From: an uncultured Deinococcales bacterium
GTDB taxonomy: Bacteria; Deinococcota; Deinococci; Deinococcales; JAAFIG01
Length of the DNA stretch: 10,012 nucleotides
Reading direction: 5' to 3'
Assembly: GCA_964247135.1 (NCBI GenBank)
Contig: CAXTTL010000182.1
Location: 1-10,012 of the forward strand
Under the pieces are notes generated by a model that had not been told where the DNA came from, did no database searches, and saw only the letters and a list, made by a program, of their open reading frames with translations. The position numbers and the translations under genes were made by a program. Positions 1 to 10,012 of the stretch are shown here, piece after piece; position 1 is the first letter of the stretch, and each line of letters begins with the position of its first letter.

Positions 1-266
1 GGAAAAAATTCTACGGTTAAAGCACGCATGGTCAAATCTTGCACCGCGTCAAAACGAAAAGGTTGCAAGTTAAACGCCCTAATTTGATGCAACGAACTTG
101 ATGTTTCGTGATCTTCGACGTAAGTGGCAAATGCCAAGCTGGTCACGTGTTCTGGCACAATCAGATGGTGTGTGTTGTCTTTGGAATGCACTTCTTCCCA
201 AAAATAGTAATGGCGAACAAAATCGCGCAGAACAGGTGATGGTTGAAAAAAGTGAGGCATATCCAT
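1..266 (-). CDS. AraC-family transcriptional regulator, N-terminal (DUF6597-like) part; runs off the window start
   Basis: Not in the ORF track. Manual translation from ATG at 266 is open to the edge: MDMPHFFQPSPVLRDFVRHYYFWEEVHSKDNTHHLIVPEHVTSLAF...ALTVEFF. The P-x-P-x-L-x-x-F-V-x-x-Y-x-x-x-E...I-V-P pattern resembles DUF6597-AraC N-termini. GAGGGG lies at 278-273, and the gene is divergent from an efflux gene. The HTH domain lies outside the window. Confidence 0.7.
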   Translation of the reverse strand, partial: MDMPHFFQPSPVLRDFVRHYYFWEEVHSKDNTHHLIVPEHVTSLAFATYVEDHETSSSLHQIRAFNLQPFRFDAVQDLTMRALTVEFF

Positions 267-385
267 AAGCAACCCCTCGAGTATAGATGGGTTTGCATTT
301 GGAGCGTGTCGCAATTTTCCAATACGAATTTTTTGATTTCTTTTAACCTGATGCCATTCGGGGATAACCCCTGTCAGGAGAACTC

Positions 386-460
386 ATGAAAACACTTTTT
401 AACTCGAGCATCGTCATTACGCGGGCTAGCACCCAATTCAAAAGCAAAGGTAACTCATAA
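386..460 (+). CDS. Putative 24-aa leader peptide (MKTLFNSSIVITRASTQFKSKGNS) upstream of the MFS gene
   Basis: AGGAG at 376-380, ATG at 386 and TAA at 458-460; the stop lies 2 nt before the MFS ATG at 463. Confidence 0.4.
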   Translation: MKTLFNSSIVITRASTQFKSKGNS

Positions 461-462
461 CC

Positions 463-1706
463 ATGAACGACACAAATTCTGTAACGAAAAAATTCCCTAT
501 CGGCACGCTCCTTTTTCTGCTCGTCAGCATGTTTCTGGCTACGATGGGTTTCGGCATCACCACTCCAGTGCTGCCTTTCCTGATCCAAAATACATTTCCA
601 ACCTCAATCAAGCCGCGCCAACCATCAGTTGGTTGATTTCGGCTTACGCCATTTGCTCATTTTTTGCCGCTCCAATTTTGGGGGCGCTCAGTGACCGGTT
701 CGGACGCAAACCCATTCTGGTCATCTGTTTGCTTGGTTCGGCGATTGGCTACGTTGCCTTCGGTATTGGTGGCGCGTTGTGGGTCTTGTTCCTTGGTCGT
801 ATTTTGGATGGTTTGACCGCCGGTGATTTCGGCACGATCAGCTCGATGATTGCCGACAATTCGCCCAAGGAGGACATTGGCAAACACTACGGGCAAATGG
901 GTGGCGCGGCGGGCGCGGGTTTCCTGATCGGACCTGTGTTTGGTGGTTTTCTGGCAAAAATCAGTCTCGAGACCCCATTCTTTGTGGCTGGCGCACTGAC
1001 TTTGATTGTCATGCTGTGGGGTTTGTTCCTCGTGCCTGAAAGCCTGAAACCAGAAAACCGAGGCGCGAAACTCGAGTTGAGTACCCTGAACCCACTACTC
1101 AAGATTGCTGAGATTTTTGCCATGCCCAAAATTCGGTTGCTGGTGATCGCCAGTGCGGTTTTTATGATTCCTTTTGTGATGTTGCAAACCAACTTTGGGT
1201 TGCTGGTCAAAGACAGTTTGGGTTGGGGTCCGGATCAAATATCCCTGATTTTTTCGATAGTCGGTGTTTGCGACATTATCGTGCAAGGTTTCTTGCTGGG
1301 TTTTTTGATCAAAACCTTGGGTGAACAGAAATTATTGCTGCTGAGTTTGTTGATGGTTGTGGCTGGACTGGTTGGTCTTGCCTTGCTGCCCGTGCTCAAA
1401 CTCGTTTGGATTGTGGTCGCGGCAACCGCCGTGTTCGCCATTGGTGAGGGCATGTTTACTTCAACGGTGGGTGGTTTGGTGGCAAAGCACACCGAGGACA
1501 ACGTTCAAGGGCAAGTGCAAGGTGGTACGCAATCGCTCAACTCGTTGATGCAAGCCATCAGTCCAAGCATTGGCGAACAGTTGTACAGCAAAGTTTCGGC
1601 TGGCGCACCATTTTGGGCTGGGGCAGCCATTATCCTGGCAGGGGCAGGGTTGTTGCTGGCAGGAGAAAAGGTGGCTGGGACAGCACCACCGTTACAAGAA
1701 GCCTGA
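463..1706 (+). pseudogene. MFS drug:H+ antiporter (DHA1/TetA-like) interrupted by an apparent 1-nt frameshift near 587-590; the C-terminal ORF 633..1706 is intact
   Basis: ATG 463 gives MNDTNSVTKKFPIGTLLFLLVSMFLATMGFGITTPVLPFLIQ (typical TM1) and stops at TGA 634-636. The -1 frame continues KYISNLNQAAPTISWLISAYAICSFFAAPILGALSDRFGRKP (motif A), GRILDG (motif B) and GAGFLIGPVFGG (motif C). One added base would give ~414 aa. A sequencing error is possible. Confidence 0.85.
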
Positions 1707-1779
1707 ACGCTGCTTTCAAACTTCACTCGAGATTTACCGTGACCCCGAAGGCACGCGTTACGCCACGAGTTTTACAGTG

Positions 1780-1812
1780 AAAAACGCGAGACCAACGGCG
1801 TGTCTCGCGTTT
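1780..1812 (-). terminator. Intrinsic terminator between convergent genes, possibly bidirectional
   Basis: Perfect 11-bp stem AAACGCGAGAC (1782-1792) / GTCTCGCGTTT (1802-1812) with a 9-nt loop. It ends in T5 on the minus strand and T3 on the plus strand. Confidence 0.75.
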
Positions 1813-1840
1813 CCTGATGATTTGATTGAATGGTCTTAAT

Positions 1841-3055
1841 TTAATACCCAAATGTTAACAACGTGCCGTGTTCGCCACCAACCCAGAGGTGCGCGGCGTC
1901 AAAGGCATAACCAGAATGCAGTCGTGAATCGGAGGCGAGTGCGCGGATGCTCGAGGTGGCGTCTTTCCAAGTTGCTCCACCGTCGGTGCTGGCAAACATC
2001 AACGCCGAGGAACTGCCCGTCTTGCCTACCGCCCAGCCGTTCATGCCGTCTGGGGCAAAGAACATGTGATAGAAGATGGTGTCTTCACGGAGCGTTGGGA
2101 GTTTGGCTTTGACCCAACTCGAGTCAGCGCCTTTTTGGGCGTCGTTGGTCAAGAAAATAAAGCCCGATTCTGGCTCTGGGTTGAGTCCACCGAAGGCGTA
2201 ACAACGGTTAGCATTGGTGCAAGTCACCCCGAGTGGACCCGCGCCGTCTTCGATGCCTTTAAAGACAACACGGTAATAACGCTTGCCGCCGTCGGTGGAA
2301 ATACACACCCCAGCGGTTTCCGTGCCGCGTTGGTTGCGAGCGCCCGAAGGGTAGAGAATCACCGACAGGTCTGGGGCAACATAGGCGGGTTGGGTTAGGT
2401 GTGGGCTGATGCTGACGCCAGGGTCAGAATCGCAAATTCGCGGGTCGGCTTTGAGCAGGTTTTCAAAATTACTGGGCACGGACCCAGGTGGTACGGGCGA
2501 CCACAACGGCGTCCAGAGCGCCCCTGGACTTGGTGCGTCGGTGGTGTCATAGGTTTCTCGGCTGTTGAACAATACCCAACGACCATCTTTCTCGCCCATG
2601 CCCATTTGCTGATTGAGACCAAAGGTTTCGCCACCGTCCAGAGTGCCGATTTTGACGGCAGTCCACGAGGCGGCTTTGGTGATATCACTCGTCGCGCTGA
2701 CAAATGATTGACCTGCACCATCGACCAATGCGATCAACTGGTCGCCGACCTTGGCAAGTCCAGTAAAACCAATCTCACCAATCGTGCCCAGTTTTGCGGC
2801 GAGGGTGGTGTCACCCGTCAGCAAGGTGGCGGTGATCTTCTGACCGTCGCTGGCGTACAAATGCCCCGCTCCACCGAAGACGCTGCTGGCAACCACGCAG
2901 GCTTTGGCAGAGGCGCAGTACATGCCAGTCACACGTTCGTCGTCTTGAGGCAATTTGATACTTTTCCAAGTACTACCTTGGGCTTGTGCCAGTGCCAAGG
3001 CGAGCAATGTGGCGCTGACAAGACTGTTTAAGGCGATCAAAACGGTTTTGTTCAT
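1841..3055 (-). CDS. Secreted beta-propeller protein with BNR/Asp-box repeats (Ycf48/sialidase-like fold), function unknown
   Basis: 404 aa with a signal peptide (MNKTVLIALNSLVSATLLALALAQA), Asp boxes STDGGKRY and STDGGATW, blade-like ends GWAVG and LWVGGEHGTLL, and a GGAGG SD at 3066-3062. Confidence 0.8.
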   Translation of the reverse strand: MNKTVLIALNSLVSATLLALALAQAQGSTWKSIKLPQDDERVTGMYCASAKACVVASSVFGGAGHLYASDGQKITATLLTGDTTLAAKLGTIGEIGFTGLAKVGDQLIALVDGAGQSFVSATSDITKAASWTAVKIGTLDGGETFGLNQQMGMGEKDGRWVLFNSRETYDTTDAPSPGALWTPLWSPVPPGSVPSNFENLLKADPRICDSDPGVSISPHLTQPAYVAPDLSVILYPSGARNQRGTETAGVCISTDGGKRYYRVVFKGIEDGAGPLGVTCTNANRCYAFGGLNPEPESGFIFLTNDAQKGADSSWVKAKLPTLREDTIFYHMFFAPDGMNGWAVGKTGSSSALMFASTDGGATWKDATSSIRALASDSRLHSGYAFDAAHLWVGGEHGTLLTFGY

Positions 3056-3167
3056 ACATTTCCTCCAGGTGTTTTGTTCGTGTGCTCTGAAATGTTAGCC
3101 CGCCTTCGGTCACATTATGGTCACAAAATCTTGCGGCAAAGCTCGAGCTTTAAAAAATTCTTCCAGC

Positions 3168-3197
3168 TTGACAGAATCAAAGCCCGCCCCGTACACT
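3168..3197 (+). promoter_or_regulatory. Sigma70-type promoter of the met operon
   Basis: TTGACA (3168-3173), 18-nt spacer, TACACT (3192-3197); about 30 nt upstream of riboswitch P1. Confidence 0.75.
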
Positions 3198-3228
3198 CGA
3201 ACCAAGTCAAAAAGACTGACAACTTAGG

Positions 3229-3434
3229 TTCTCTTATCAAGAGCGGCAGAGGGACTGACCCAATGAAGCCGCAGCAACCGGGTTCAAGGATTTCATGCCA
3301 AAGACGCCACACAGCCAGATGCGAATGTTCAACCGCCAAACGGTTGACTGAAAATCTTGTTGATGCTTAAGCAAATTTCTTGACCGTTCGGTGCTAATTC
3401 CAGCCAAGGCGCACGCCTTGGGCAGATGAGGGAA
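3229..3434 (+). ncRNA. SAM-I (S-box) riboswitch aptamer with extended P3
   Basis: P1 TTCTCTTATC (3229-3238) / GATGAGGGAA (3425-3434); AAGAG junction; kink-turn P2 GCGGCAGAGGGACTGACCCAATGAAGCCGC; P3 AGCAACC (3273-3279) / GGTGCT (3390-3395); AATTCCAG junction; P4 CCAAGGCG/CGCCTTGG (3404-3421). It lies directly upstream of metY-metX. Confidence 0.93.
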
Positions 3435-3455
3435 GGACGCGACAAGAATTCTTTT

Positions 3456-3489
3456 TGCCCCTTCTCGAGCGAGGAGGGGCATGTTTTGT
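3456..3489 (+). terminator. Riboswitch expression platform: intrinsic terminator
   Basis: TGCCCCTTCTCG (3456-3467) / CGAGGAGGGGCA (3470-3481) followed by TGTTTTGT. Its pyrimidine-rich 5' arm can alternatively pair with the purine-rich P1 3' strand (GAGGGAAGG), as expected for an antiterminator. Confidence 0.85.
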
Positions 3490-3500
3490 ATTCAAATTGA

Positions 3501-4919
<1,419 letters not shown>

Positions 4920-4928
4920 ATCATCAAT

Positions 4929-4957
4929 GTAGAGGATGGTCTGATACCATCCTCTAC
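4929..4957. repeat. Perfect 12-bp intercistronic inverted repeat (REP-like, GTAG...CTAC ends)
   Basis: GTAGAGGATGGT (4929-4940), loop CTGAT, ACCATCCTCTAC (4946-4957). No U-tract; it abuts the GGGAG SD of the next gene. Confidence 0.7.
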
Positions 4958-4969
4958 GGGAGAAAGCGT

Positions 4970-5230
4970 ATGCTTCAAACGCTCGAAAAGCCTAAAATTC
5001 TTGAATCTCGAGTGTGTCCGGTCTGTGGTGGCACGGCGCTTCAGGTGCTGCCGCGCAATCGAAACCGCCGAACCGAGACGCTCAAGTGTGCGCACGTTTC
5101 AGAAACCTGGCATCGGCAAGCCGAGCGTTTGCAACTCGAGATGGCGGCGACGGTCAGCCCAAGTTTGAGGCGCCTTTTAAACGCCGACTTTGAGCAAATC
5201 CTAACCACGCGCAAGAACGAGAATCCATGA
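4970..5230 (+). CDS. Small hypothetical protein with CPVC and CAH motifs (possible metal-binding)
   Basis: 86 aa; GGGAG SD at 4958-4962; fills the metY-metX gap; its TGA overlaps the metX ATG (ATGA at 5227-5230). Confidence 0.8.
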   Translation: MLQTLEKPKILESRVCPVCGGTALQVLPRNRNRRTETLKCAHVSETWHRQAERLQLEMAATVSPSLRRLLNADFEQILTTRKNENP

Positions 5231-6345
5231 CTGCGACCTTAAAACCCGAACGTGATTTGCATGTCCAAACCCTGGGCGATTACGAGGCTCGGGTTTTGTT
5301 CCCCGAACCGCGTCCGGTCGCCAGGGAAATGCGCTATGCCACGGTGTTTAACGCCAAAAAACCGTTGGCGCTCGAGTTGGGTGGTTTTTTGGCGCCCGTT
5401 CGGGTGGCGTACACAACTTACGGCACACTCAACGAAGCCAAAGACAATGCGGTGGTGGTCTGTCACGCCCTGACAGGTTCGGCGGTGGTCGGCGGTGCGA
5501 GCGGTTGGTGGCCCGAACTGATCGGTGAGGGTCGGATGCTCGACACCAGCCAGGATTTTGTGATCTGTGCCAATGTGCTGGGCGGTTGTTACGGCACGAC
5601 CGGTCCGACCAGCCCAAATCCAAACTCGAGCAGCGATTACCTGTCTGACTTTCCTGAAATCACCGTGGGTGACATGGTGCGCGTTCAGGCGGCATTGCTC
5701 GAGGTGCTTGGGGTCAAACACGTTCGGGTGGTCGTGGGCGGCAGCATGGGCGGAATGCAGGTACTCGAGTGGTTGCACGCCTACCCGGACTTGGTCGGGG
5801 CTGGCGTGGTGATCGGCGCTCCGGCAAGGCACAGCGCTTGGGCGCTCGCGCTGTATCACCTGTCGCGTCAAGCGATTCAAAACGACCCAGATTTTCGGGC
5901 TGGGCGTTACGCGGCACAGCCCAAAGGTTTGGCGCTGGCTCGGGAAATTGCGACCATTTCATACCGCAGTCCAGAATCGTTCGAGATCACCCAAGCGCGG
6001 CGCCCCAGCAAACTCGACCCGAACAAATTCGCCATGCAAACCTACCTCGAGCATCAGGGCGAAAAATTGCTCGAGCGTTTTGATGCCAATTCGTACTTAA
6101 CGATCTCGAGGGCGCTGGACCGCTTTGATCTGACTGACATCGAATTGGCAACGATTGCCCAACCAGTCTTGTGTGTGGGCATCTCGAGCGATTGCTTGTA
6201 CTTGCCGCACGAGGTCAAGCACGTTGCCCAGACGGTGCAACACGGTCAGTACGCGCATCTCGAGTCGGTGCATGGTCACGATGCGTTTTTGATCGAGATG
6301 GACAAGCTCGAGCCGAGCGTGCAGGATTTTTTGAGGCGGGTTTAA
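5227..6345 (+). CDS. metX: Homoserine O-acetyltransferase (MetX family, alpha/beta hydrolase)
   Basis: 372 aa with NAVVVCHALTG, GWW, NVLGGCYGTTGP, nucleophile GGSMGG, catalytic Asp in GISSD and His in HGHDAFL. Acetyl versus succinyl specificity is inferred from the pairing with metY. Confidence 0.95.
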   Translation: MTATLKPERDLHVQTLGDYEARVLFPEPRPVAREMRYATVFNAKKPLALELGGFLAPVRVAYTTYGTLNEAKDNAVVVCHALTGSAVVGGASGWWPELIGEGRMLDTSQDFVICANVLGGCYGTTGPTSPNPNSSSDYLSDFPEITVGDMVRVQAALLEVLGVKHVRVVVGGSMGGMQVLEWLHAYPDLVGAGVVIGAPARHSAWALALYHLSRQAIQNDPDFRAGRYAAQPKGLALAREIATISYRSPESFEITQARRPSKLDPNKFAMQTYLEHQGEKLLERFDANSYLTISRALDRFDLTDIELATIAQPVLCVGISSDCLYLPHEVKHVAQTVQHGQYAHLESVHGHDAFLIEMDKLEPSVQDFLRRV

Positions 6346-6440
6346 ATAATTGAACTCAGCCATAATAATAAACCCGAGCTTACTTTCCTGCACGTGATTT
6401 TTGGACAGGGAGCGTATTTTTTATCGGTTAGAGTCCTGTT

Positions 6441-7724
6441 GTGAAGTTTACGAACATCATTATTGGGTTAACCACTGTTGCCACGCTCGGAATGCTCTCG
6501 AGCAGTTTGTCGCAATCGGTCTGGAGCAAAGCAGAAACAGAGTTGCTCGCTTCGATGTCGCTGGGCAAGTTGGGTTCTATGCCCAAAGACCCTTCCAATG
6601 TTGTTGCCGATAATGGGCAAGCCGCCGAGTTGGGTCAAAAATTGTTCTTTGATAAGCGTCTCAGTTCCGATGGCAGCGTGGCTTGCGTGACCTGTCACAG
6701 CACGGAAAAGTATTTTGCCGACGATCAGGCACGTTCTGAGGGTGTCGGCATGACCGACCGCAAAGCCCCCAGTATCGTCGGGGCTGGCTTTTACAAATGG
6801 TACTTCTGGGACGGTCGCGCCGACAGCCAGTGGTCGCAAGCCCTTGGACCGCTCGAGAATGGCAATGAGCATGGTGGTGACCGCACCCAATACGCGCGGG
6901 TGATCTTTAACAATTACAAAACCGAATTCGAGGCGTTGTTTGGTCCGATGCCCGAACTGGGCGATATCTCGCGCTTCCCAGCCCATGCGGGTCCGGTGGC
7001 AGACCCCAAAGCCAACAATGCTTGGCAATTCATGGATTCCAATGATCGCCAAGCCGTGACACGGGTTTTTGTCAACATCGGCAAAGCCATCGCGGCATAC
7101 GAGCGCAAACTCAACCCTGGTCGCTCGAGGTTTGATACTTTCGTTGACACGCTCATCCATCCGGAAAATGACCCTGAAGCCTCGAGTACCCTGAACGACT
7201 TTGAGCTGGCTGGACTGAGGCTGTTTATTGGCAAAGCGGGTTGCGTGTCGTGCCACAATGGTCCACTGCTGACCGATCAGCAATTTCACAATACGGGCGT
7301 CCCAACCGCCGAGGATTTAAAACTCGATCTTGGACGCACCAGCGGCTTGCAAAAGTTGGCAACCAGCGAATTTGGTTGCTTAAGCCAATACAGCGATGCC
7401 AAACCAGAACAGTGCACTGCCAATACCAGCACCGACAGCTACGACACCTCGAGCGAAGTCAAGAACCTGAACGGGGCGTTCAAAACCCCTTCCTTGCGTG
7501 GTGCGAGTTTGCACGCGCCGTTCATGCACGCCGGAGAATTTAAAACTTTGCAAGCAGTGCTCGAGCATTACAGCCATGCCCCTGCCGCGCCAACGGGTCA
7601 ATCGGAGGTCAAGCCTTTAAACCTCTCGAGTCTCGAGATGCAACAAATCCAAGCATTTTTGAAGTCTTTGGAAGCCCCAATCGATGCGGATGCCCAGTGG
7701 TTGGCAGACCCATTCTCGAATTAG
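6441..7724 (+). CDS. Exported di-heme cytochrome c peroxidase / MauG-family protein
   Basis: 427 aa with a signal-like N-terminus, LGQKLFFDKRLS, CVTCH (6684-6698), YFWDGRA, CVSCH (7242-7256), FHNTG, FKTPSLR and PFMHAG. Confidence 0.92.
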   Translation: MKFTNIIIGLTTVATLGMLSSSLSQSVWSKAETELLASMSLGKLGSMPKDPSNVVADNGQAAELGQKLFFDKRLSSDGSVACVTCHSTEKYFADDQARSEGVGMTDRKAPSIVGAGFYKWYFWDGRADSQWSQALGPLENGNEHGGDRTQYARVIFNNYKTEFEALFGPMPELGDISRFPAHAGPVADPKANNAWQFMDSNDRQAVTRVFVNIGKAIAAYERKLNPGRSRFDTFVDTLIHPENDPEASSTLNDFELAGLRLFIGKAGCVSCHNGPLLTDQQFHNTGVPTAEDLKLDLGRTSGLQKLATSEFGCLSQYSDAKPEQCTANTSTDSYDTSSEVKNLNGAFKTPSLRGASLHAPFMHAGEFKTLQAVLEHYSHAPAAPTGQSEVKPLNLSSLEMQQIQAFLKSLEAPIDADAQWLADPFSN

Positions 7725-7747
7725 TCAAAAAAACGTATCATGTAAGC

Positions 7748-8212
7748 ATGACCAAGACTCAAGTTCGTTTCTCGAGTGTGCTTCAGCGCAACTTGGGTGT
7801 GTTTCAAACCAATGCCGAATCTTTAAAACAAAAAGATTTTCTGATTCAGACCCCCAGCGACGGTCTGCATTTTAACTGGATTTTGGGACATGTCGTGCAT
7901 TCCAGACAGATTTTGCTCGAGGCGCTCGGCGCAGAACCGAGCGTCAAAAACACCGAGATTTTAAAGGCTTACGCCAGGGGCAGCAAAACCCAAGCCAGTG
8001 AAATCATGTCAAGCCAGGATTTGTTGCAGGCGCTCGAAATCAGTCAAGCGGCGCTCGACAAAGCGCTTGAGGATGCCGATTTCGCCTCGCCAAGCCCAAT
8101 GGGCAGGGGAACGCTCGAGGACTATTTTGAATTCATGACCTGGCACGAAACCTACCACGCGGGTCAGTCGGGTGTGTTGCGGCGCTTGGCGGGTTTTGCC
8201 GGACAGATTTAA
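7748..8212 (+). CDS. DinB/YfiT-superfamily protein
   Basis: 154 aa from ATG 7748 (avoids overlap with the upstream gene). NWILGH and WHETYHAGQ supply the three-His metal site of DinB four-helix bundles. Confidence 0.88.
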   Translation: MTKTQVRFSSVLQRNLGVFQTNAESLKQKDFLIQTPSDGLHFNWILGHVVHSRQILLEALGAEPSVKNTEILKAYARGSKTQASEIMSSQDLLQALEISQAALDKALEDADFASPSPMGRGTLEDYFEFMTWHETYHAGQSGVLRRLAGFAGQI

Positions 8213-8245
8213 AAACAAATTAAAATTCAAAATTGAATCGCTCGA

Positions 8246-8284
8246 GAATCTTTGAGATCAGCCCGCGCTGGTTTTCAAGGATTC
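8246..8284. other. Long imperfect intergenic hairpin downstream of the DinB gene (terminator or stability element)
   Basis: GAATCTTTGAGATCAGC-CCGC-GCTGGTTTTCAAGGATTC: about 17 pairs including G-U and one bulge; no clear U-tract. Confidence 0.5.
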
Positions 8285-8444
8285 AGCATCCCCTCAGATT
8301 GAACCTCAGCCAGCATCAGCCGTCTGAAGCAGACTTTGATTTGTCGCACCGGCATCAAACTCGAGCTTTCATGGCGCTACCGGCAATGCTGTGATGCGGG
8401 CAATGTCAGTTGTTTGCGACAAACCAGCAAGGTGAGGAGACATC

Positions 8445-8990
8445 ATGAATCAGCAATCGAATCAAACCGACAATCAAGATTTGGTCATCGCCAACCGCGT
8501 TGCGGCGCTCGACACCCTCAAACGCCACCTTCACGGAATGCGATTTGCCATGCTGACGACCTTAAGCGAAGACGGCAGGCTGCACAGCCGCCCGATGACG
8601 ATCCAAGAACTAGCAGCCGACGGCAAGTTATGGTTTTTTACCAACCTCGACTCGGAAAAAGTTATCGAAGCCCAACACAAACCCTGGGTCAACTTGGCGT
8701 ACACCAACGAAGGCTCGAGTTTGTACGTGTCCGTTTCGGGTCGCGCCCAACTGGTCAAAGACCGTGAAAAAATCAAAGAACTCTGGAATCCAATGGTCGC
8801 CGCCTATTTCCCAAACGGCGTTGATGACCCTCAATTGGCGCTTCTGAGCGTCGATGTTGACGATGCGGAAGTTTGGGAATCGCCGAGCGCCGCGCCGGTT
8901 AGATTGTTCAACATGGTCAAAGCCATCGTCACCGGAAAAGTGGACGATCAGGGTCATCATGAGCATCTCGAGGTTGGCGCCAAAAGCTGA
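8445..8990 (+). CDS. Pyridoxamine 5'-phosphate oxidase-like FMN-binding protein (general stress protein 26/YdaG-like)
   Basis: 181 aa; GAGGAG SD at 8434-8439; motifs AMLTT, GRLHSRPM, LWFFT, YVSVSGRA, ELWNP and FPNGVDDPQLALL. Confidence 0.9.
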   Translation: MNQQSNQTDNQDLVIANRVAALDTLKRHLHGMRFAMLTTLSEDGRLHSRPMTIQELAADGKLWFFTNLDSEKVIEAQHKPWVNLAYTNEGSSLYVSVSGRAQLVKDREKIKELWNPMVAAYFPNGVDDPQLALLSVDVDDAEVWESPSAAPVRLFNMVKAIVTGKVDDQGHHEHLEVGAKS

Positions 8991-9020
8991 GGCAGATCAT
9001 CTGAAAGGCAGGAAAATCCA

Positions 9021-9392
9021 ATGCAACCCGAACGCATCAAAAAGTCTCAACCAGACGGTTCTGAGAATGTGGCAGAGGAATATGCCAAGTCAACGCAACA
9101 AATTCCGCTCGAGCGCGGCGCATCGATCTCCGAGCGCGACGGCGCGATTGAAGACTTGGAAACCGACCAAGACCCGAATGCCGACCTGATGAACGATTCG
9201 ATGATTGAGGCAGACCAAGCCCCCGAAGGGATTGAAGACGACCTTGACCGCGACGGCGGCGCTTACGCCGACGAATCCAACCTGCCCCAAAAAGTCTATT
9301 CGGATCGGGAGTTCAACCGTTTAATCGACAGTGACGTTCACGGTGACAGCCCCACCGCCGAAGACCACGAAGAGGTTTTTCCCACCGATTAA
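9021..9392 (+). CDS. Hypothetical acidic, probably disordered protein
   Basis: 123 aa, 30 nt after the previous stop, preceded by AGGCAGGA. About 35 of 123 residues are D/E; no Cys or Trp. Confidence 0.75.
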   Translation: MQPERIKKSQPDGSENVAEEYAKSTQQIPLERGASISERDGAIEDLETDQDPNADLMNDSMIEADQAPEGIEDDLDRDGGAYADESNLPQKVYSDREFNRLIDSDVHGDSPTAEDHEEVFPTD

Positions 9393-9424
9393 CGCTCGAG
9401 CGGCGAATCGTATAGCATCTTGTG

Positions 9425-10012
9425 ATGTCCTCAATTCCCAAACTCGAGATTGTCGTCGATAGCCTTGTGGGTGTGCAAATCGCTCGAGAATCTGGAGCGA
9501 ACCGCGTCGAACTGTGCTCCTCATTCGTTGAGGGCGGTATCACCCCAAGTATTGGTTTAACCTCCCTGGCGGTGCAGCAAAACATTCCTGTCAACGTGGT
9601 GGTGCGCCCACGGGCGGGCGATTCGCTGTACTCGAGCTTTGAAGTTGAAACGATGCTCGAGGATATTTGGGCGGTCAAACGTGTTGGCGCAAACGCCGTG
9701 GTGATCGGCGCGTTGACCGAAGATGAAAAGCTAGATTTTTCAGTGATGAAAAGCTTGATTGCCGCAGCCCGCCCGCTCGAGGTCACCTTTCATCGGGCGT
9801 TCGATGTGGTTGCCGACCCACCTGCCACGCTCGAGGCGCTCATCAATCTGGGTGTGCAACGCGTTTTGACCAGTGGACAACAATTGACGGCGGAACTTGG
9901 AATCCCGCTGCTCAAAAACCTGGTGGATTTGGCTCGAGAACGCATTTTGATTTTGCCTGCGGCGGGCATCAACGCCAGCAATGCCAAAAAAATTTGGACC
10001 CAAACGGGCGTG
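9425..10012 (+). CDS. cutC: Copper homeostasis protein CutC (TIM barrel); runs off the window end
   Basis: Not in the ORF track. Open for 196 codons from ATG 9425: MSSIPKLEIVVDS...GANRVELCSSFVEGGITPSIG...VRPRAGD...VVIGALT...VTFHRAFD...RVLTSG, the CutC signature motifs. Confidence 0.93.
   Translation, partial: MSSIPKLEIVVDSLVGVQIARESGANRVELCSSFVEGGITPSIGLTSLAVQQNIPVNVVVRPRAGDSLYSSFEVETMLEDIWAVKRVGANAVVIGALTEDEKLDFSVMKSLIAAARPLEVTFHRAFDVVADPPATLEALINLGVQRVLTSGQQLTAELGIPLLKNLVDLARERILILPAAGINASNAKKIWTQTGV

Follow-up and report, generated by a model that had tools for sequence, protein, structure and literature searches.

The window, that is, the whole stretch of 10,012 nt analysed, carries an MFS transporter gene, a SAM riboswitch aptamer (3231–3432), metY, metX, a MauG-like di-haem gene, a PPOX-like gene, cutC and further ORFs, and the palindrome CTCGAG is scattered throughout. 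The sequence-only reading had put the number of copies at about 53; the recount gave exactly 53, and all 15 of the coordinates it had listed (276 to 9483) were recovered. In 200 dinucleotide-preserving shuffles the mean was 1.78 (sd 1.30, largest 6), and none of the 200 reached 53. Based on the ORF table, 25 sites lie in phase 0 (Leu-Glu), 3 in phase 1 (x-Arg-x), 14 in phase 2 (x-Ser-Ser/Arg) and 11 in intergenic DNA, as expected from the earlier claim that all three codon phases and intergenic DNA are occupied. Downstream of the SAM riboswitch, an 11-bp hairpin is followed by a U-run, and the site at 3464–3469 forms its apex, the position previously assigned to it. In metY and metX, 12 of 16 sites use a residue common to fewer than half of the 62–83 outgroup orthologues. 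The CTCGAG sites are listed below without strand; "kept" gives the alignments that retain the site.

276–281: ORF 3–314 (minus strand), phase 0
403–408: intergenic
966–971: MFS transporter gene, phase 0
1071–1076: MFS transporter gene, phase 0
1726–1731: intergenic; kept 3/3 same-genus
1950–1955: ORF 1841–3055 (minus strand), phase 2; kept 2/2 same-genus, 0/2 other genera
2118–2123: ORF 1841–3055 (minus strand), phase 2; kept 2/2 same-genus, 0/2 other genera
3142–3147: intergenic; kept 0/1
3464–3469: terminator hairpin apex after SAM riboswitch; kept 5/5 same-genus, 3/3 other-genus
3510–3515: metY leader, intergenic; kept 3/5
3539–3544: metY leader, intergenic; kept 4/5
3816–3821: metY, phase 0, Leu-Glu, ancestral residues 83/83; kept 5/5 and 4/7
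4056–4061: metY, phase 0, Leu in 27/83 outgroups; kept 5/5 and 6/7
4405–4410: metY, phase 1 (Ala-Arg-Val); kept 0/5 same-genus, 5/7 other genera
4539–4544: metY, phase 0, Glu in 31/83 outgroups; kept 4/5 and 4/7
4706–4711: metY, phase 2, Ser in 11/83 outgroups; kept 4/4 and 2/7
4884–4889: metY, phase 0, derived Leu-Glu; kept 3/4 and 4/6
5007–5012: metY–metX intergenic; kept 1/4
5135–5140: metY–metX intergenic; kept 3/4
5371–5376: metX, phase 0; kept 4/4 and 5/6
5625–5630: metX, phase 2, Asn-Ser-Ser, all three residues rare in outgroups; kept 5/5 and 0/7
5698–5703: metX, phase 0, Glu in 10/70; kept 5/5 and 2/7
5764–5769: metX, phase 0, ancestral Leu-Glu 66/69; kept 5/5 and 5/7
6046–6051: metX, phase 0, Glu in 2/67; kept 5/5 and 2/7
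6070–6075: metX, phase 0, Leu 3/67, Glu 9/67; kept 5/5 and 3/7
6105–6110: metX, phase 2 (Ile-Ser-Arg); kept 4/5 and 0/6
6183–6188: metX, phase 2 (Ile-Ser-Ser); kept 5/5 and 6/6
6259–6264: metX, phase 0, Glu 7/64; kept 5/5 and 2/3
6307–6312: metX, phase 0, Glu 5/62; kept 4/5
6497–6502: MauG-like di-haem gene, phase 2; kept 3/5
6852–6857: MauG-like gene, phase 0; kept 4/4
7124–7129: MauG-like gene, phase 2; kept 4/4
7181–7186: MauG-like gene, phase 2; kept 0/3
7448–7453: MauG-like gene, phase 2; kept 2/2
7560–7565: MauG-like gene, phase 0; kept 0/2
7625–7630: MauG-like gene, phase 2, next site 7 bp away; kept 0/2
7632–7637: MauG-like gene, phase 0; kept 2/2
7771–7776: ORF 7697–8212, phase 2; kept 2/3
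7916–7921: ORF 7697–8212, phase 0; kept 3/3
8114–8119: ORF 7697–8212, phase 0; kept 3/3
8241–8246: intergenic; kept 2/2
8360–8365: intergenic; kept 2/2
8714–8719: PPOX-like gene, phase 2; kept 2/2
8967–8972: PPOX-like gene, phase 0; kept 2/2
9108–9113: ORF 9021–9392, phase 0; kept 2/2
9395–9400: intergenic, directly 3' of stop codon; kept 2/2
9443–9448: cutC, phase 0; kept 2/3
9483–9488: cutC, phase 1; kept 0/3
9631–9636: cutC, phase 2; kept 2/3
9656–9661: cutC, phase 0; kept 1/3
9776–9781: cutC, phase 0; kept 3/3
9830–9835: cutC, phase 0; kept 3/3
9933–9938: cutC, phase 1; kept 3/3

Genome-wide pressure on the entire hexamer

In the 5.09-Mb genome, CTCGAG is the commonest of all hexamers (33,925 copies, one per 150 bp), exceeding expectation 24.8-fold under a zero-order model, 35.2-fold under a dinucleotide model and 14.4-fold under a second-order model. 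No other palindromic hexamer is enriched to a comparable degree: the next are TTTAAA (3.66-fold) and AAATTT (3.45-fold), none exceeds 3.7-fold and most are depleted. Each of the 810 5-kb windows tested contains at least nine copies, and the spacing is Poisson-like (CV 0.96; median 108 versus 103 for an exponential distribution). The densest class is short intergenic DNA, with 8.99 sites/kb (43.6 times expectation) versus 6.51/kb in ORFs, and density is highest immediately 3' of stop codons. Intergenic CTCGAG outnumbers each of its one-off transition neighbours about 18-fold, the transversion neighbours about 46- to 73-fold and CTAGAG 178-fold. Where it is not part of CTCGAG, TCGA occurs about as often as expected (20,685 versus ~19,800); a TaqI-type word is therefore not what the pressure acts on, and the TaqI-like methyltransferase once suggested finds no support. 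A/T is preferred in the flanks (A at −3, 0.40–0.45 versus a background of 0.27; the commonest flanked form is AAACTCGAGTTT), and this weak, symmetric preference persists outside the GAGCTC-forbidden context.

Two features could suggest that CTCGAG merely follows from codon, dicodon or amino-acid usage, namely that most coding sites (17,646 of 28,805) are in phase 0 (CTC GAG) and that site spacings prefer multiples of three, but this is practically out of the question given the intergenic density, the spelling of Leu-Glu and two null models. CTCGAG spells 77% of Leu-Glu pairs, yet Leu before any residue other than Glu is written CTC in only 15% of cases, and Glu after any residue other than Leu is written GAG in 32%. 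A synonymous shuffle yields ~4,000 coding sites in total (~3,150, 320 and 570 in phases 0, 1 and 2, versus 17,646, 4,475 and 6,684 observed), and a dicodon Markov model yields 2,460 and 3,567 in phases 1 and 2, falling 1.8- to 1.9-fold short, so that the earlier contention that codon usage alone is insufficient holds. The CTC and GAG usage is rather a consequence of the motif, because 44% of those codons sit inside sites. CTCGAG fills 77%, 43% and 47% of the synonymous opportunities in phases 0, 1 and 2, respectively, and the dipeptides Leu-Glu and Ser-Ser are over-represented 2.37- and 1.61-fold (Glu-Leu, 1.01-fold). A sequence-specific pressure acts on the entire hexamer wherever resident DNA can carry it, in all three frames and between genes, even at the cost of amino-acid changes.

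Conservation, acquisition and distribution of the sites

Between two genomes of the same genus, 1,682 of 1,976 sites (85.1%) are conserved versus 45% of control hexamers, in line with the suggestion that some process maintains the motif; in non-coding DNA the figures are 141 of 168 versus 43.4%. Motif codons are conserved at 75–88% inside sites and 52–62% outside. Such conservation does not prove that individual sites function, because a strong stationary pressure largely predicts it. Of 1,396 Leu-Glu pairs that align, 73.6% are sites in both genomes, versus 65.4% expected under independence. Foreign genes of low GC content (at most 0.35) hold 0.45 sites/kb (O/E 7) and typical genes 6.6–7.6/kb (O/E 23–25); newly acquired DNA slowly gains sites.

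As a highly iterated palindrome, CTCGAG is real and extends through the family: all 19 genomes of an uncultured family of Deinococcales carry 4.3–6.8 sites/kb, every genome of the other four families of the order has at most 3.4/kb, and density is graded across related lineages. The guess of a lineage-specific motif in Deinococcota was therefore right, and a literature search found no publication on hyper-abundant CTCGAG in Deinococcales. Like HIP1 (GCGATCGC) and the alternate cyanobacterial HIPs, CTCGAG is a short GC-rich palindrome present at tens of times its expectation. It shares with HIP1 a clade-wide occurrence in three frames and in non-coding DNA, conservation above control words, codons that are more conserved inside sites than outside, and spread by substitution rather than insertion. 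The HIP1-like behaviour read from the window, with all frames and intergenic DNA occupied and codon usage no explanation, extends to the genome. In contrast to the octamer HIP1, CTCGAG is a hexamer and a different word in a different phylum (CGATCG is nearly absent from this genome, with 47 sites), and unlike the HIPs it has a strong effect on the proteome. According to Elhai 2015 (PMC4390886), HIPs occur at ~1 per 1,000 nt, which makes CTCGAG ~7 times denser, and are reported with a cognate methylase; none was found for CTCGAG.

Possible origins of the pressure

Our tentative proposal, held at less than even confidence, is that the pressure may be a molecular drive tied to DNA exchange between relatives, the drive step itself being purely our supposition. 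A putative protein would recognise CTCGAG along with its weak A/T-rich flank, most commonly as AAACTCGAGTTT, and CTCGAG-bearing DNA could be favoured at uptake in natural transformation or at resolution of the donor-recipient heteroduplex. Word-bearing alleles would then replace word-lacking ones, one site after another. Molecular drive has also been put forward for DNA uptake sequences, the DUS of Neisseria and the USS of Pasteurellaceae. Like these, CTCGAG is a clade-specific over-represented word of genes and spacers that is enriched near gene ends, is scarce in DNA acquired recently, influences peptide content and might build up by molecular drive; the density peak after stop codons (12.1/kb), the A/T flank preference and the competence gene comEC (ComEC in 18 of 19 family genomes) complete the parallel. 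Known uptake sequences are non-palindromic, 9–12 nt long, present at ~1 per kb and more evenly spaced than random, whereas CTCGAG is palindromic, only 6 nt long, ~7 times denser and randomly spaced, and its role in uptake is conjectural. Competence genes do not discriminate, because Thermus and Deinococcus control genomes, which are not enriched in CTCGAG, also have ComEC. A randomly spaced 6-nt palindrome with one copy per 150 bp is explained at least as well by strictly local events (repair bias or direct selection on each site) as by the uptake of kilobase fragments. As with the Chi words of RecBCD/AddAB, an over-represented "self" word might shield resident DNA and promote recombination, but Chi is asymmetric and oriented and CTCGAG palindromic; RecC was found in none of the 151 genomes of the order, with a positive E. 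coli control. HIP1 has been linked to transformation (Rodriguez-Cruz et al. 2026, PMC13756078), and a drive has recently been proposed for it as well.

Unlikely, though deserving some weight, is direct selection for an abundant chromosomal protein that binds CTCGAG and its weak A/T flanks, either organising the nucleoid or discriminating self from non-self, such that each added site brings a small benefit and site-poor foreign DNA is handled differently. Recognition of the entire hexamer, the symmetric flank preference also outside the GAGCTC-forbidden context, the random spacing indicative of independent per-site pressure, the strongly conserved non-coding sites and the poverty of foreign DNA in CTCGAG would all be accommodated, and Xu et al. 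2018 (PMC5861425) interpreted HIP1 in terms of chromosome structure. However, no candidate protein was identified, and ~34,000 sites, each selected strongly enough to override amino-acid choice, would probably impose a heavy load.

Rather improbable in our estimate is a methylation-linked repair ratchet of the Elhai type, in which an unrecognised CTCGAG methylase, or different non-orthologous ones, would mark sites that methyl-directed repair or recombination creates or preserves. CTCGAG has the six letters of XhoI/PaeR7I-type Type II R-M targets, XhoI-family nucleases occur in 6 of 151 genomes of the order, and in a sister family a PF01555 methylase adjoins an XhoI-type nuclease. However, no XhoI-family nuclease was found in any of the 19 family genomes, the family yielded no orthologue of the XhoI-linked PF01555 methylase (best match 33% identity, in the catalytic domain) and genomes G011, G003, G004 and G043 have no match to it. 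G011 (one contig, 94% completeness, 23,515 sites) contains no PF01555 enzyme, and the XhoI/PaeR7I-like methyltransferase anticipated by the sequence-only reading was thus not recovered. Setting aside one HsdM-like gene without a partner, the methylases of G011 belong to Type I or Type ISP, are linked to BglII or SacI, are M.CbeI-like (GGCC-type) or were recently acquired; its sole C5 enzyme sits in a low-GC island with 0 CTCGAG sites. Only the SacI-linked methylase was shown to be common to G000 and G011, and a search of seven Pfam families found no methylase common to the entire family. Vsr has no match in this genome, and neither the intergenic transition neighbours (300/307/296) nor the between-genome one-off counterparts (125/112/96 over the three half-site positions) reveal a deamination hotspot within CTCGAG, which argues against m5C but not against m6A or m4C.

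GAGCTC (0 sites), CAGCTG (15), CCGCGG (11) and GGCC (O/E 0.02), which we take to be the targets of the namesakes of this genome's R-M nucleases, are nearly eliminated, the opposite of CTCGAG, which no restriction system here has as its target. The new findings are these negatives: no XhoI-type nuclease, methylase orthologue, family-wide methylase or deamination hotspot. For the ratchet speak several methylases of no assigned specificity in every family genome examined, among them the C207, C4, C21 and C112 enzymes of this genome and the HsdM-like enzyme of G011. Elhai 2015 (PMC4390886) found alternate cyanobacterial HIPs together with methylases whose specificity matches them, and CTCGAG-specific methylases exist, such as an m5C enzyme described for Halorubrum (PMC8112702).

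A neutral context-dependent mutation bias, whereby the replication or repair of the lineage simply generates CTCGAG faster than it removes it, without any function or exchange-linked drive, is very improbable. It would account for the accumulation of the motif in resident DNA and its scarcity in foreign DNA, the random spacing and the graded density across related lineages, but it requires a bias from all nine one-off neighbour classes, transitions and transversions alike, at three half-site positions, and no mutational process is known to favour one hexamer in this way. Moreover, existing sites change at a rate ~4.5-fold below that of the non-coding bases next to them, which points to protection beyond mere production.

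Abundance and codon context of CTCGAG

The sequence-only reading had put about 53 copies of CTCGAG in the window, and the count is exactly 53, every coordinate it named included; 200 dinucleotide-preserving shuffles of the window gave 1.78 ± 1.30 copies with a maximum of 6, and none reached 53. Throughout the assembly (5,091,702 bases in 386 contigs, 84% complete, 52.65% G+C), CTCGAG occurs at 33,925 sites, or one per 150 bases, and ranks first among the 4,096 hexamers. The genome-wide excess persists at 24.8-fold, 35.2-fold, and 14.4-fold under zero-order, dinucleotide, and second-order Markov models, respectively; the maximal-order ratio of 1.24 carries no information, since the pentamers owe their abundance solely to the hexamer itself. 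Equal enrichment of other palindromic hexamers, the outcome held to count against the motif, is not seen, as no other exceeds 3.7-fold and most are under-represented, many to the point of near absence. Outside CTCGAG, the tetramer TCGA occurs 20,685 times, about as often as expected. Because TCGA elsewhere stands at expectation and other palindromes are not similarly enriched, the enriched unit is the full hexamer. The flanks are weakly biased (G at −1, 0.39; A at −3, 0.37), the commonest 12-mer containing CTCGAG has 109 copies versus 33,925 sites, and palindromic extension is absent at 79% of sites, which together show that the word is not part of a longer repeat element. Dispersed repeats of the REP or MITE type, units of at least 20 nt that usually form hairpins and are copied as blocks, were rejected for want of an extended consensus at CTCGAG, and a role as hairpin centre was rejected since longer palindromes are not centred on the sites.

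Spacing between sites is near exponential (mean 148, median 108 versus 103 expected, CV 0.96), with codon periodicity, and all 810 of the 5-kb windows tested hold 9–64 sites, with a variance-to-mean ratio of 1.87. Pairs of sites at a distance of 6 bp, which would generate GAGCTC, do not occur. Density is highest in the 25 nt past stop codons (12.1/kb versus about 6.5 within genes). Gaps free of CTCGAG extend up to 2,644 bp, the longest mostly in DNA of 27–40% G+C. At a G+C of 0.35 or below, genes contain 0.45 sites/kb (O/E 7), compared with 6.6–7.6/kb (O/E 23–25) in typical genes, and only 15 of 2,090 genes of at least 900 nt have none; the deficit in low-G+C genes implies that the word builds up in resident DNA. 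Four islands devoid of the word, of 27–33% G+C in this 52.7% genome, lie at C13:11893-14536, C70:14168-16418, C20:7986-9673, and C1:102561-104482.

The gene set used for coding context is crude (4,260 non-overlapping ORFs of at least 120 aa), so that non-ORF DNA includes small genes. As had been claimed from the window, CTCGAG occupies all reading frames and non-coding DNA, with 17,646, 4,475, and 6,684 sites in phases 0 (Leu-Glu), 1 (x-Arg-x), and 2 (x-Ser-Ser or x-Ser-Arg). ORFs hold 6.51 sites/kb and non-ORF DNA 7.58/kb, the value rising to 8.99/kb where intergenic segments are short and of only 46.6% G+C, and across 306 kb of intergenic DNA the word reaches 43.6 times expectation. Within-gene synonymous codon shuffling (five replicates) leaves about 3,150, 320, and 570 sites in the three phases. 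The enrichment also survives a dicodon-preserving model, under which it might have vanished: 2,460 and 3,567 sites are predicted in phases 1 and 2, for which the model already contains five of the six letters, versus the 4,475 and 6,684 observed. Phase 0 is preserved by construction, and the model is uninformative there because the CTC-GAG dicodon is abundant only through the hexamer. This dicodon is the most over-represented of all (16.3-fold), and the ratio for GAG-CTC is 0.00. CTCGAG writes 77% of 22,920 Leu-Glu pairs; where no Glu follows, CTC is the codon for 15% of Leu residues, and where no Leu precedes, GAG is the codon for 32% of Glu residues. Synonymous opportunities are occupied at 77%, 43%, and 47% in phases 0, 1, and 2. 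The enrichment is not a matter of codon usage.

Proteins have been altered as well. Leu-Glu is over-represented 2.37-fold, second highest of all dipeptides, and Ser-Ser 1.61-fold, with Glu-Leu at 1.01-fold. The comparison with outgroup residues covered metY and metX, the MauG-like and Ycf48-like ORFs having no outgroup alignment; at 12 of 16 sites, one or more of the encoded residues is common to fewer than half of 62–83 outgroup orthologues, and the other four use conserved ancestral residues. Upstream of the metY-metX operon, positions 3231-3500 of the window hold a SAM (S-box) riboswitch and, after it, a terminator made up of an 11-bp hairpin and a U-run; the apex of the hairpin is CTCGAG, conserved in 8 of 8 alignments.

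Conservation and phylogenetic range

Sites in the window are kept at 73–91% in five genomes of the same genus, versus 38–44% for control hexamers, and at 57–69% in five genomes of other genera, versus 14–22%. Fewer are kept in two genomes, G008 (5 of 15) and the single-contig family member G011 (3 of 16). When the related genome G005 was aligned with this genome (303,045 bases at 85.8% identity, taken from best HSPs without reciprocal filtering), 85.1% of sites (1,682 of 1,976) were conserved versus about 45% of controls, and among non-coding sites the figures were 141 of 168 (83.9%) versus 43.4%. By arithmetic from this alignment, the per-base change rate is roughly 4.5-fold lower at CTCGAG. 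Codons are better conserved inside the word than outside it (CTC.861/.550, GAG.878/.610, TCG.864/.624, CGA.745/.524), a control also applied to HIP1, the cyanobacterial highly iterated palindrome (HIP) that contains CGATCG. Of 1,396 aligned Leu-Glu pairs, 73.6% have CTCGAG in both genomes, versus 65.4% if independent, so that most of the conservation is what a strong stationary pressure would produce, which counts against a site-specific function.

Comparison of gain and loss between orthologues, proposed from the sequence as a check, indicates that differences arise by substitution: among 775 non-shared sites, the counterpart is one base off in 405, two off in 194, three or more off in 165, and a gap in 11. 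The one-off counterparts are mostly transitions, distributed 125/112/96 over the three half-site positions, with 72 transversions, and the intergenic transition neighbours number 300, 307, and 296. No deamination hotspot appears at any half-site position in the intergenic neighbours or the G005 alignment, which may be taken as weak evidence against m5C at CTCGAG.

Among public records, the nearest relatives are "Deinococcales bacterium" MAGs (MetY identity 96, 95, and 84%), whose loci hold 5.0–7.8 sites/kb; a Deinococcus locus has none in 12 kb, and the other 65 of 80 loci have a median of 0.05/kb. All 19 genomes of the uncultured family, spanning five genera, contain 12,028–35,442 sites, or 4.3–6.8/kb on rounded genome sizes. 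Among the other 132 genomes of the order sample, raw per-kb counts, not normalised for G+C, are 0.3–2.6 in family f2, 0.01–0.27 in f3 (depleted), 0.7–2.9 in f4, and 0.6–3.4 in f5, where f3 appears to be Deinococcaceae, f5 Thermaceae, and f2 a Trueperaceae-like family. Depletion in f3 (36 genomes) is strong, with 37–1,193 sites per 1.9–4.8 Mb genome, and density within this one order ranges roughly 500-fold. Genomes G128, G068, and G116 are intermediate, at about 3 sites/kb. At a 19.4-kb locus of Thermus thalpophilus, all 22 TCGA tetramers lie inside CTCGAG and none in other contexts.

Viral records were scanned for stretches with three clustered sites, of which 80 of at least 124 were taken. 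Complete environmental viral records among the matches listed (L318-L325) are G151 (110,308 bp, with terminal repeats) and G152 (36,911 bp). None of the 31 viral ORFs tested matches this genome at E 1e-8 or better, and no host link emerged. Both records carry about 2.9 CTCGAG/kb and zero GAGCTC, and write 67–74% of Leu-Glu pairs as CTCGAG; CGATCG and other TCGA-containing words are as enriched in them as CTCGAG, a word spectrum unlike that of this genome.

Restriction words and the search for a cognate enzyme

Several words of the kind targeted by restriction-modification (R-M) systems are nearly eliminated from this genome: GAGCTC (0 copies), CAGCTG (15), CCGCGG (11), and GGCC (O/E 0.02). These are the recognition sites of the namesakes of its R-M nucleases, and membership of the Pfam families suggests that the nucleases would cut the avoided words. 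Other 6-bp palindromes are scarce too (GGGCCC 1, CGGCCG 3, AGGCCT 4, CGTACG 5, GGATCC 7, GCATGC 17), and the genome that avoids so many palindromes carries R-M pairs of the MvaI/BcnI, PvuII, NgoPII, and Eco29kI types (L097, L098, L102, L103).

GAGCTC is absent from the 5.09-Mb genome and has at most 25 copies in 15 of the 18 other family genomes. The seven family genomes with a close copy of the SacI-like nuclease each hold at most 25 GAGCTC, and the three family genomes with more than 100 (G008, G010, G043) have no match to it, yet five others that lack a match hold at most 24. Two genomes with no match, G009 and G007, hold about 27,000 CTCGAG each. The SacI-like system was therefore rejected as the driver of CTCGAG, since it tracks avoidance of GAGCTC and not CTCGAG density. 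With R-M words nearly eliminated and CTCGAG abundant and untracked by the nuclease, CTCGAG behaves as the opposite of a restriction target.

The enzyme search used the Pfam families PF00145, PF01555, PF02086, PF02384, PF05063, and PF07669, together with PF04555 for the nuclease, on assemblies that are mostly incomplete. Its matches in this genome and in G011, a single contig that is 94% complete and holds 23,515 CTCGAG, were as follows.

Methylases and associated R-M proteins in this genome and in G011
This genome: two C5 methylases, beside NgoPII- and Eco29kI-type nucleases
This genome: two PF01555 methylases, beside MvaI/BcnI- and PvuII-type nucleases
This genome: methylase of a Type I system
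This genome: two MmeI-like proteins
This genome: Eco57I/SNF2 fusion of 1,499 aa
This genome: three unassigned PF01555 fragments or weak matches
This genome, C320:1061-2985 (L151): pair of D12 methylase and SacI-like nuclease
G011: one C5 methylase, within a low-GC island without CTCGAG
G011: Type ISP enzyme, two Type I systems, and a partnerless HsdM-like gene
G011: MT-A70 enzyme, beside a BglII-type nuclease
G011: two D12 enzymes
G011, L153:4395-5243: the second of these D12 enzymes, stand-alone, alpha-class, and Dam-like

No PF01555 enzyme was found in G011. Its low-GC island (L135:850-5684; 34–42% GC in a genome of roughly 60%) is almost free of CTCGAG, encodes the C5 methylase, an HD-CE protein, an ORC-CDC6-like protein, and an ORF without assignment, and is probably a recently acquired defence island. 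The first D12 enzyme of G011, a genome of another genus, is 84% identical to that on contig C320, and the adjoining SacI-like nucleases are 72% identical, a pair unusually well conserved for an R-M system; the nuclease is only 52–53% identical in three genomes of the window's own genus, so its history is not simply vertical.

The second D12 enzyme has orthologues in G002-G005, G007, G060, G077, G013, G061, and G126, with identities that drop with taxonomic distance (71%, 63–66%, 60%, and 56–57%, the last in three f2 genomes), the pattern of an orphan passed on vertically. No match to it turned up in 11 of the 19 family genomes, and three of these 11 are 94% complete. The copies in G011, G005, and G007 match PDB 7M6B, M.CbeI, at E = 1.7e-91 with about 50% identity. 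M.CbeI, a relative of cyanobacterial DmtB, is an m4C methylase specific for GGCC (PMC3425538), so that the second D12 protein is, judged by this match, most likely a GGCC enzyme. The genomes in which it resides are almost without GGCC.

The XhoI/PaeR7I- or TaqI-like methyltransferase suggested by the sequence-only reading did not materialise: none was identified for CTCGAG in the Pfam families searched, and TCGA elsewhere is at expectation. XhoI-family nucleases (PF04555) were matched in 6 of 151 order genomes and in none of the 19 family genomes, this one (84% complete) included; five copies are in f4 genomes, and the f2 copy (G026) has two in-frame stops (L145-L150). One of them, in G015 (L148), adjoins and is convergent with a PF01555 methylase that, from this adjacency, is presumably CTCGAG-specific. 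This methylase has no orthologue in the family, where similarity is generic and at family level only: the best match shows 33% identity over the catalytic domain, the others mostly cover stretches of 65–130 residues, and G011, G003, G004, and G043 gave none. An XhoI-type R-M target was thus rejected, the nuclease being unmatched in all 19 family genomes and the linked methylase lacking an orthologue. Across the seven Pfam families searched, whose members do not reveal their specificity in their sequences, no family-wide methylase is assignable to CTCGAG. Vsr (PF03852) was not matched in this 84% complete genome either, and no single neighbour class of CTCGAG is depleted, for which reasons Vsr-type short-patch repair was rejected.

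Possible causes and likeness to known iterated words

The pressure required must read all six letters symmetrically and act independently at each possible position; it must protect existing sites, create new ones in resident DNA, and override codon and some amino-acid choice. Site-to-neighbour ratios in intergenic DNA are 18–73, from which we estimate a scaled advantage of about 3–4 per site. Neither an enzyme repairing single mismatches nor a mutation bias can favour CTCGAG over all nine neighbour classes, and with these excluded the remaining cause is a protein that reads CTCGAG, by one of three routes.

By the first route, which we tentatively prefer, the word-reading protein would bias DNA exchange, either at uptake or during the resolution of heteroduplexes; such a reader may favour weak A/T flanks (probe form AAACTCGAGTTT). 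Random spacing and near-saturation of the possible positions fit a local, per-site process better than the uptake of kilobase-sized DNA, which counts against this preferred route. ComEC is present in 18 of 19 family genomes and likewise in the non-enriched Thermus and Deinococcus controls. DNA uptake sequences (DUS/USS) are asymmetric words of 9–12 nt that occur roughly once per kb and are spaced more evenly than random; CTCGAG differs as a 6-nt palindrome found once per 150 bp with a spacing CV of 0.96. A Chi-type hotspot read by RecBCD is unsupported, as RecC (PF04257) was matched in none of the 151 order genomes and the E. coli control was matched. Direct selection for protein binding at CTCGAG, the second route, is unlikely. 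A methyl-directed step, rather improbable in our judgement, would call for an enzyme not recognisable here.

Within the preferred reading of biased exchange, a bolder and doubtful form is that CTCGAG serves as a "watermark" for kin recognition, read without methylation by a sequence-specific protein that biases uptake or heteroduplex resolution. A drive resembling gene conversion would then fill half to three-quarters of the possible positions in a 5-Mb genome, with proteins rewritten. If true, no denser signal of this kind would be known, and it would be without precedent outside cyanobacteria and the classical competent pathogens.

HIP1, known since 1993 (PMC13756078), is enriched 15–300x (PMC5861425), and HIP-rich genomes are reported to encode a DNA methyltransferase specific for the word (Elhai 2015, PMC4390886); CTCGAG is not mentioned in PMC4390886. 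Literature searches found no report of CTCGAG hyper-abundance. The HIPs are the closest known relatives in behaviour. Like them, CTCGAG is a GC-rich palindrome far over expectation in all frames and in non-coding DNA, shows extra conservation relative to control words with codons better kept inside it, and has spread by substitution and not as part of an inserted element. It differs in lineage, Deinococcales instead of cyanobacteria, and in the word itself, CGATCG having 47 sites here (O/E 0.03). Four behavioural features are therefore shared, word and lineage are not, and evidence for a cognate methylase leans negative.

To our knowledge, HIPs have been discussed almost only for cyanobacteria. 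There, methylases, competence genes, and chromosome structure are entangled with one another. CTCGAG provides an independent case that separates these variables, in another phylum and with another word, denser, with a clear footprint in the proteome and no detectable cognate methylase. Should methylation prove to be truly lacking in this lineage, the methylation-ratchet model could not hold in general; should CTCGAG bias DNA exchange, it would illustrate the extent to which molecular drive can reshape a genome. Weaker forms of the enrichment are found in further lineages of the order, of which some may be cultivable, so that the watermark, if true, would open the HIP problem, now 30 years old, to experiment. 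Composition-based binning, detection of horizontal transfer, and codon-usage analysis of family genomes are dominated by the word, and digestion of unmodified family DNA with XhoI would leave fragments of about 150 bp.
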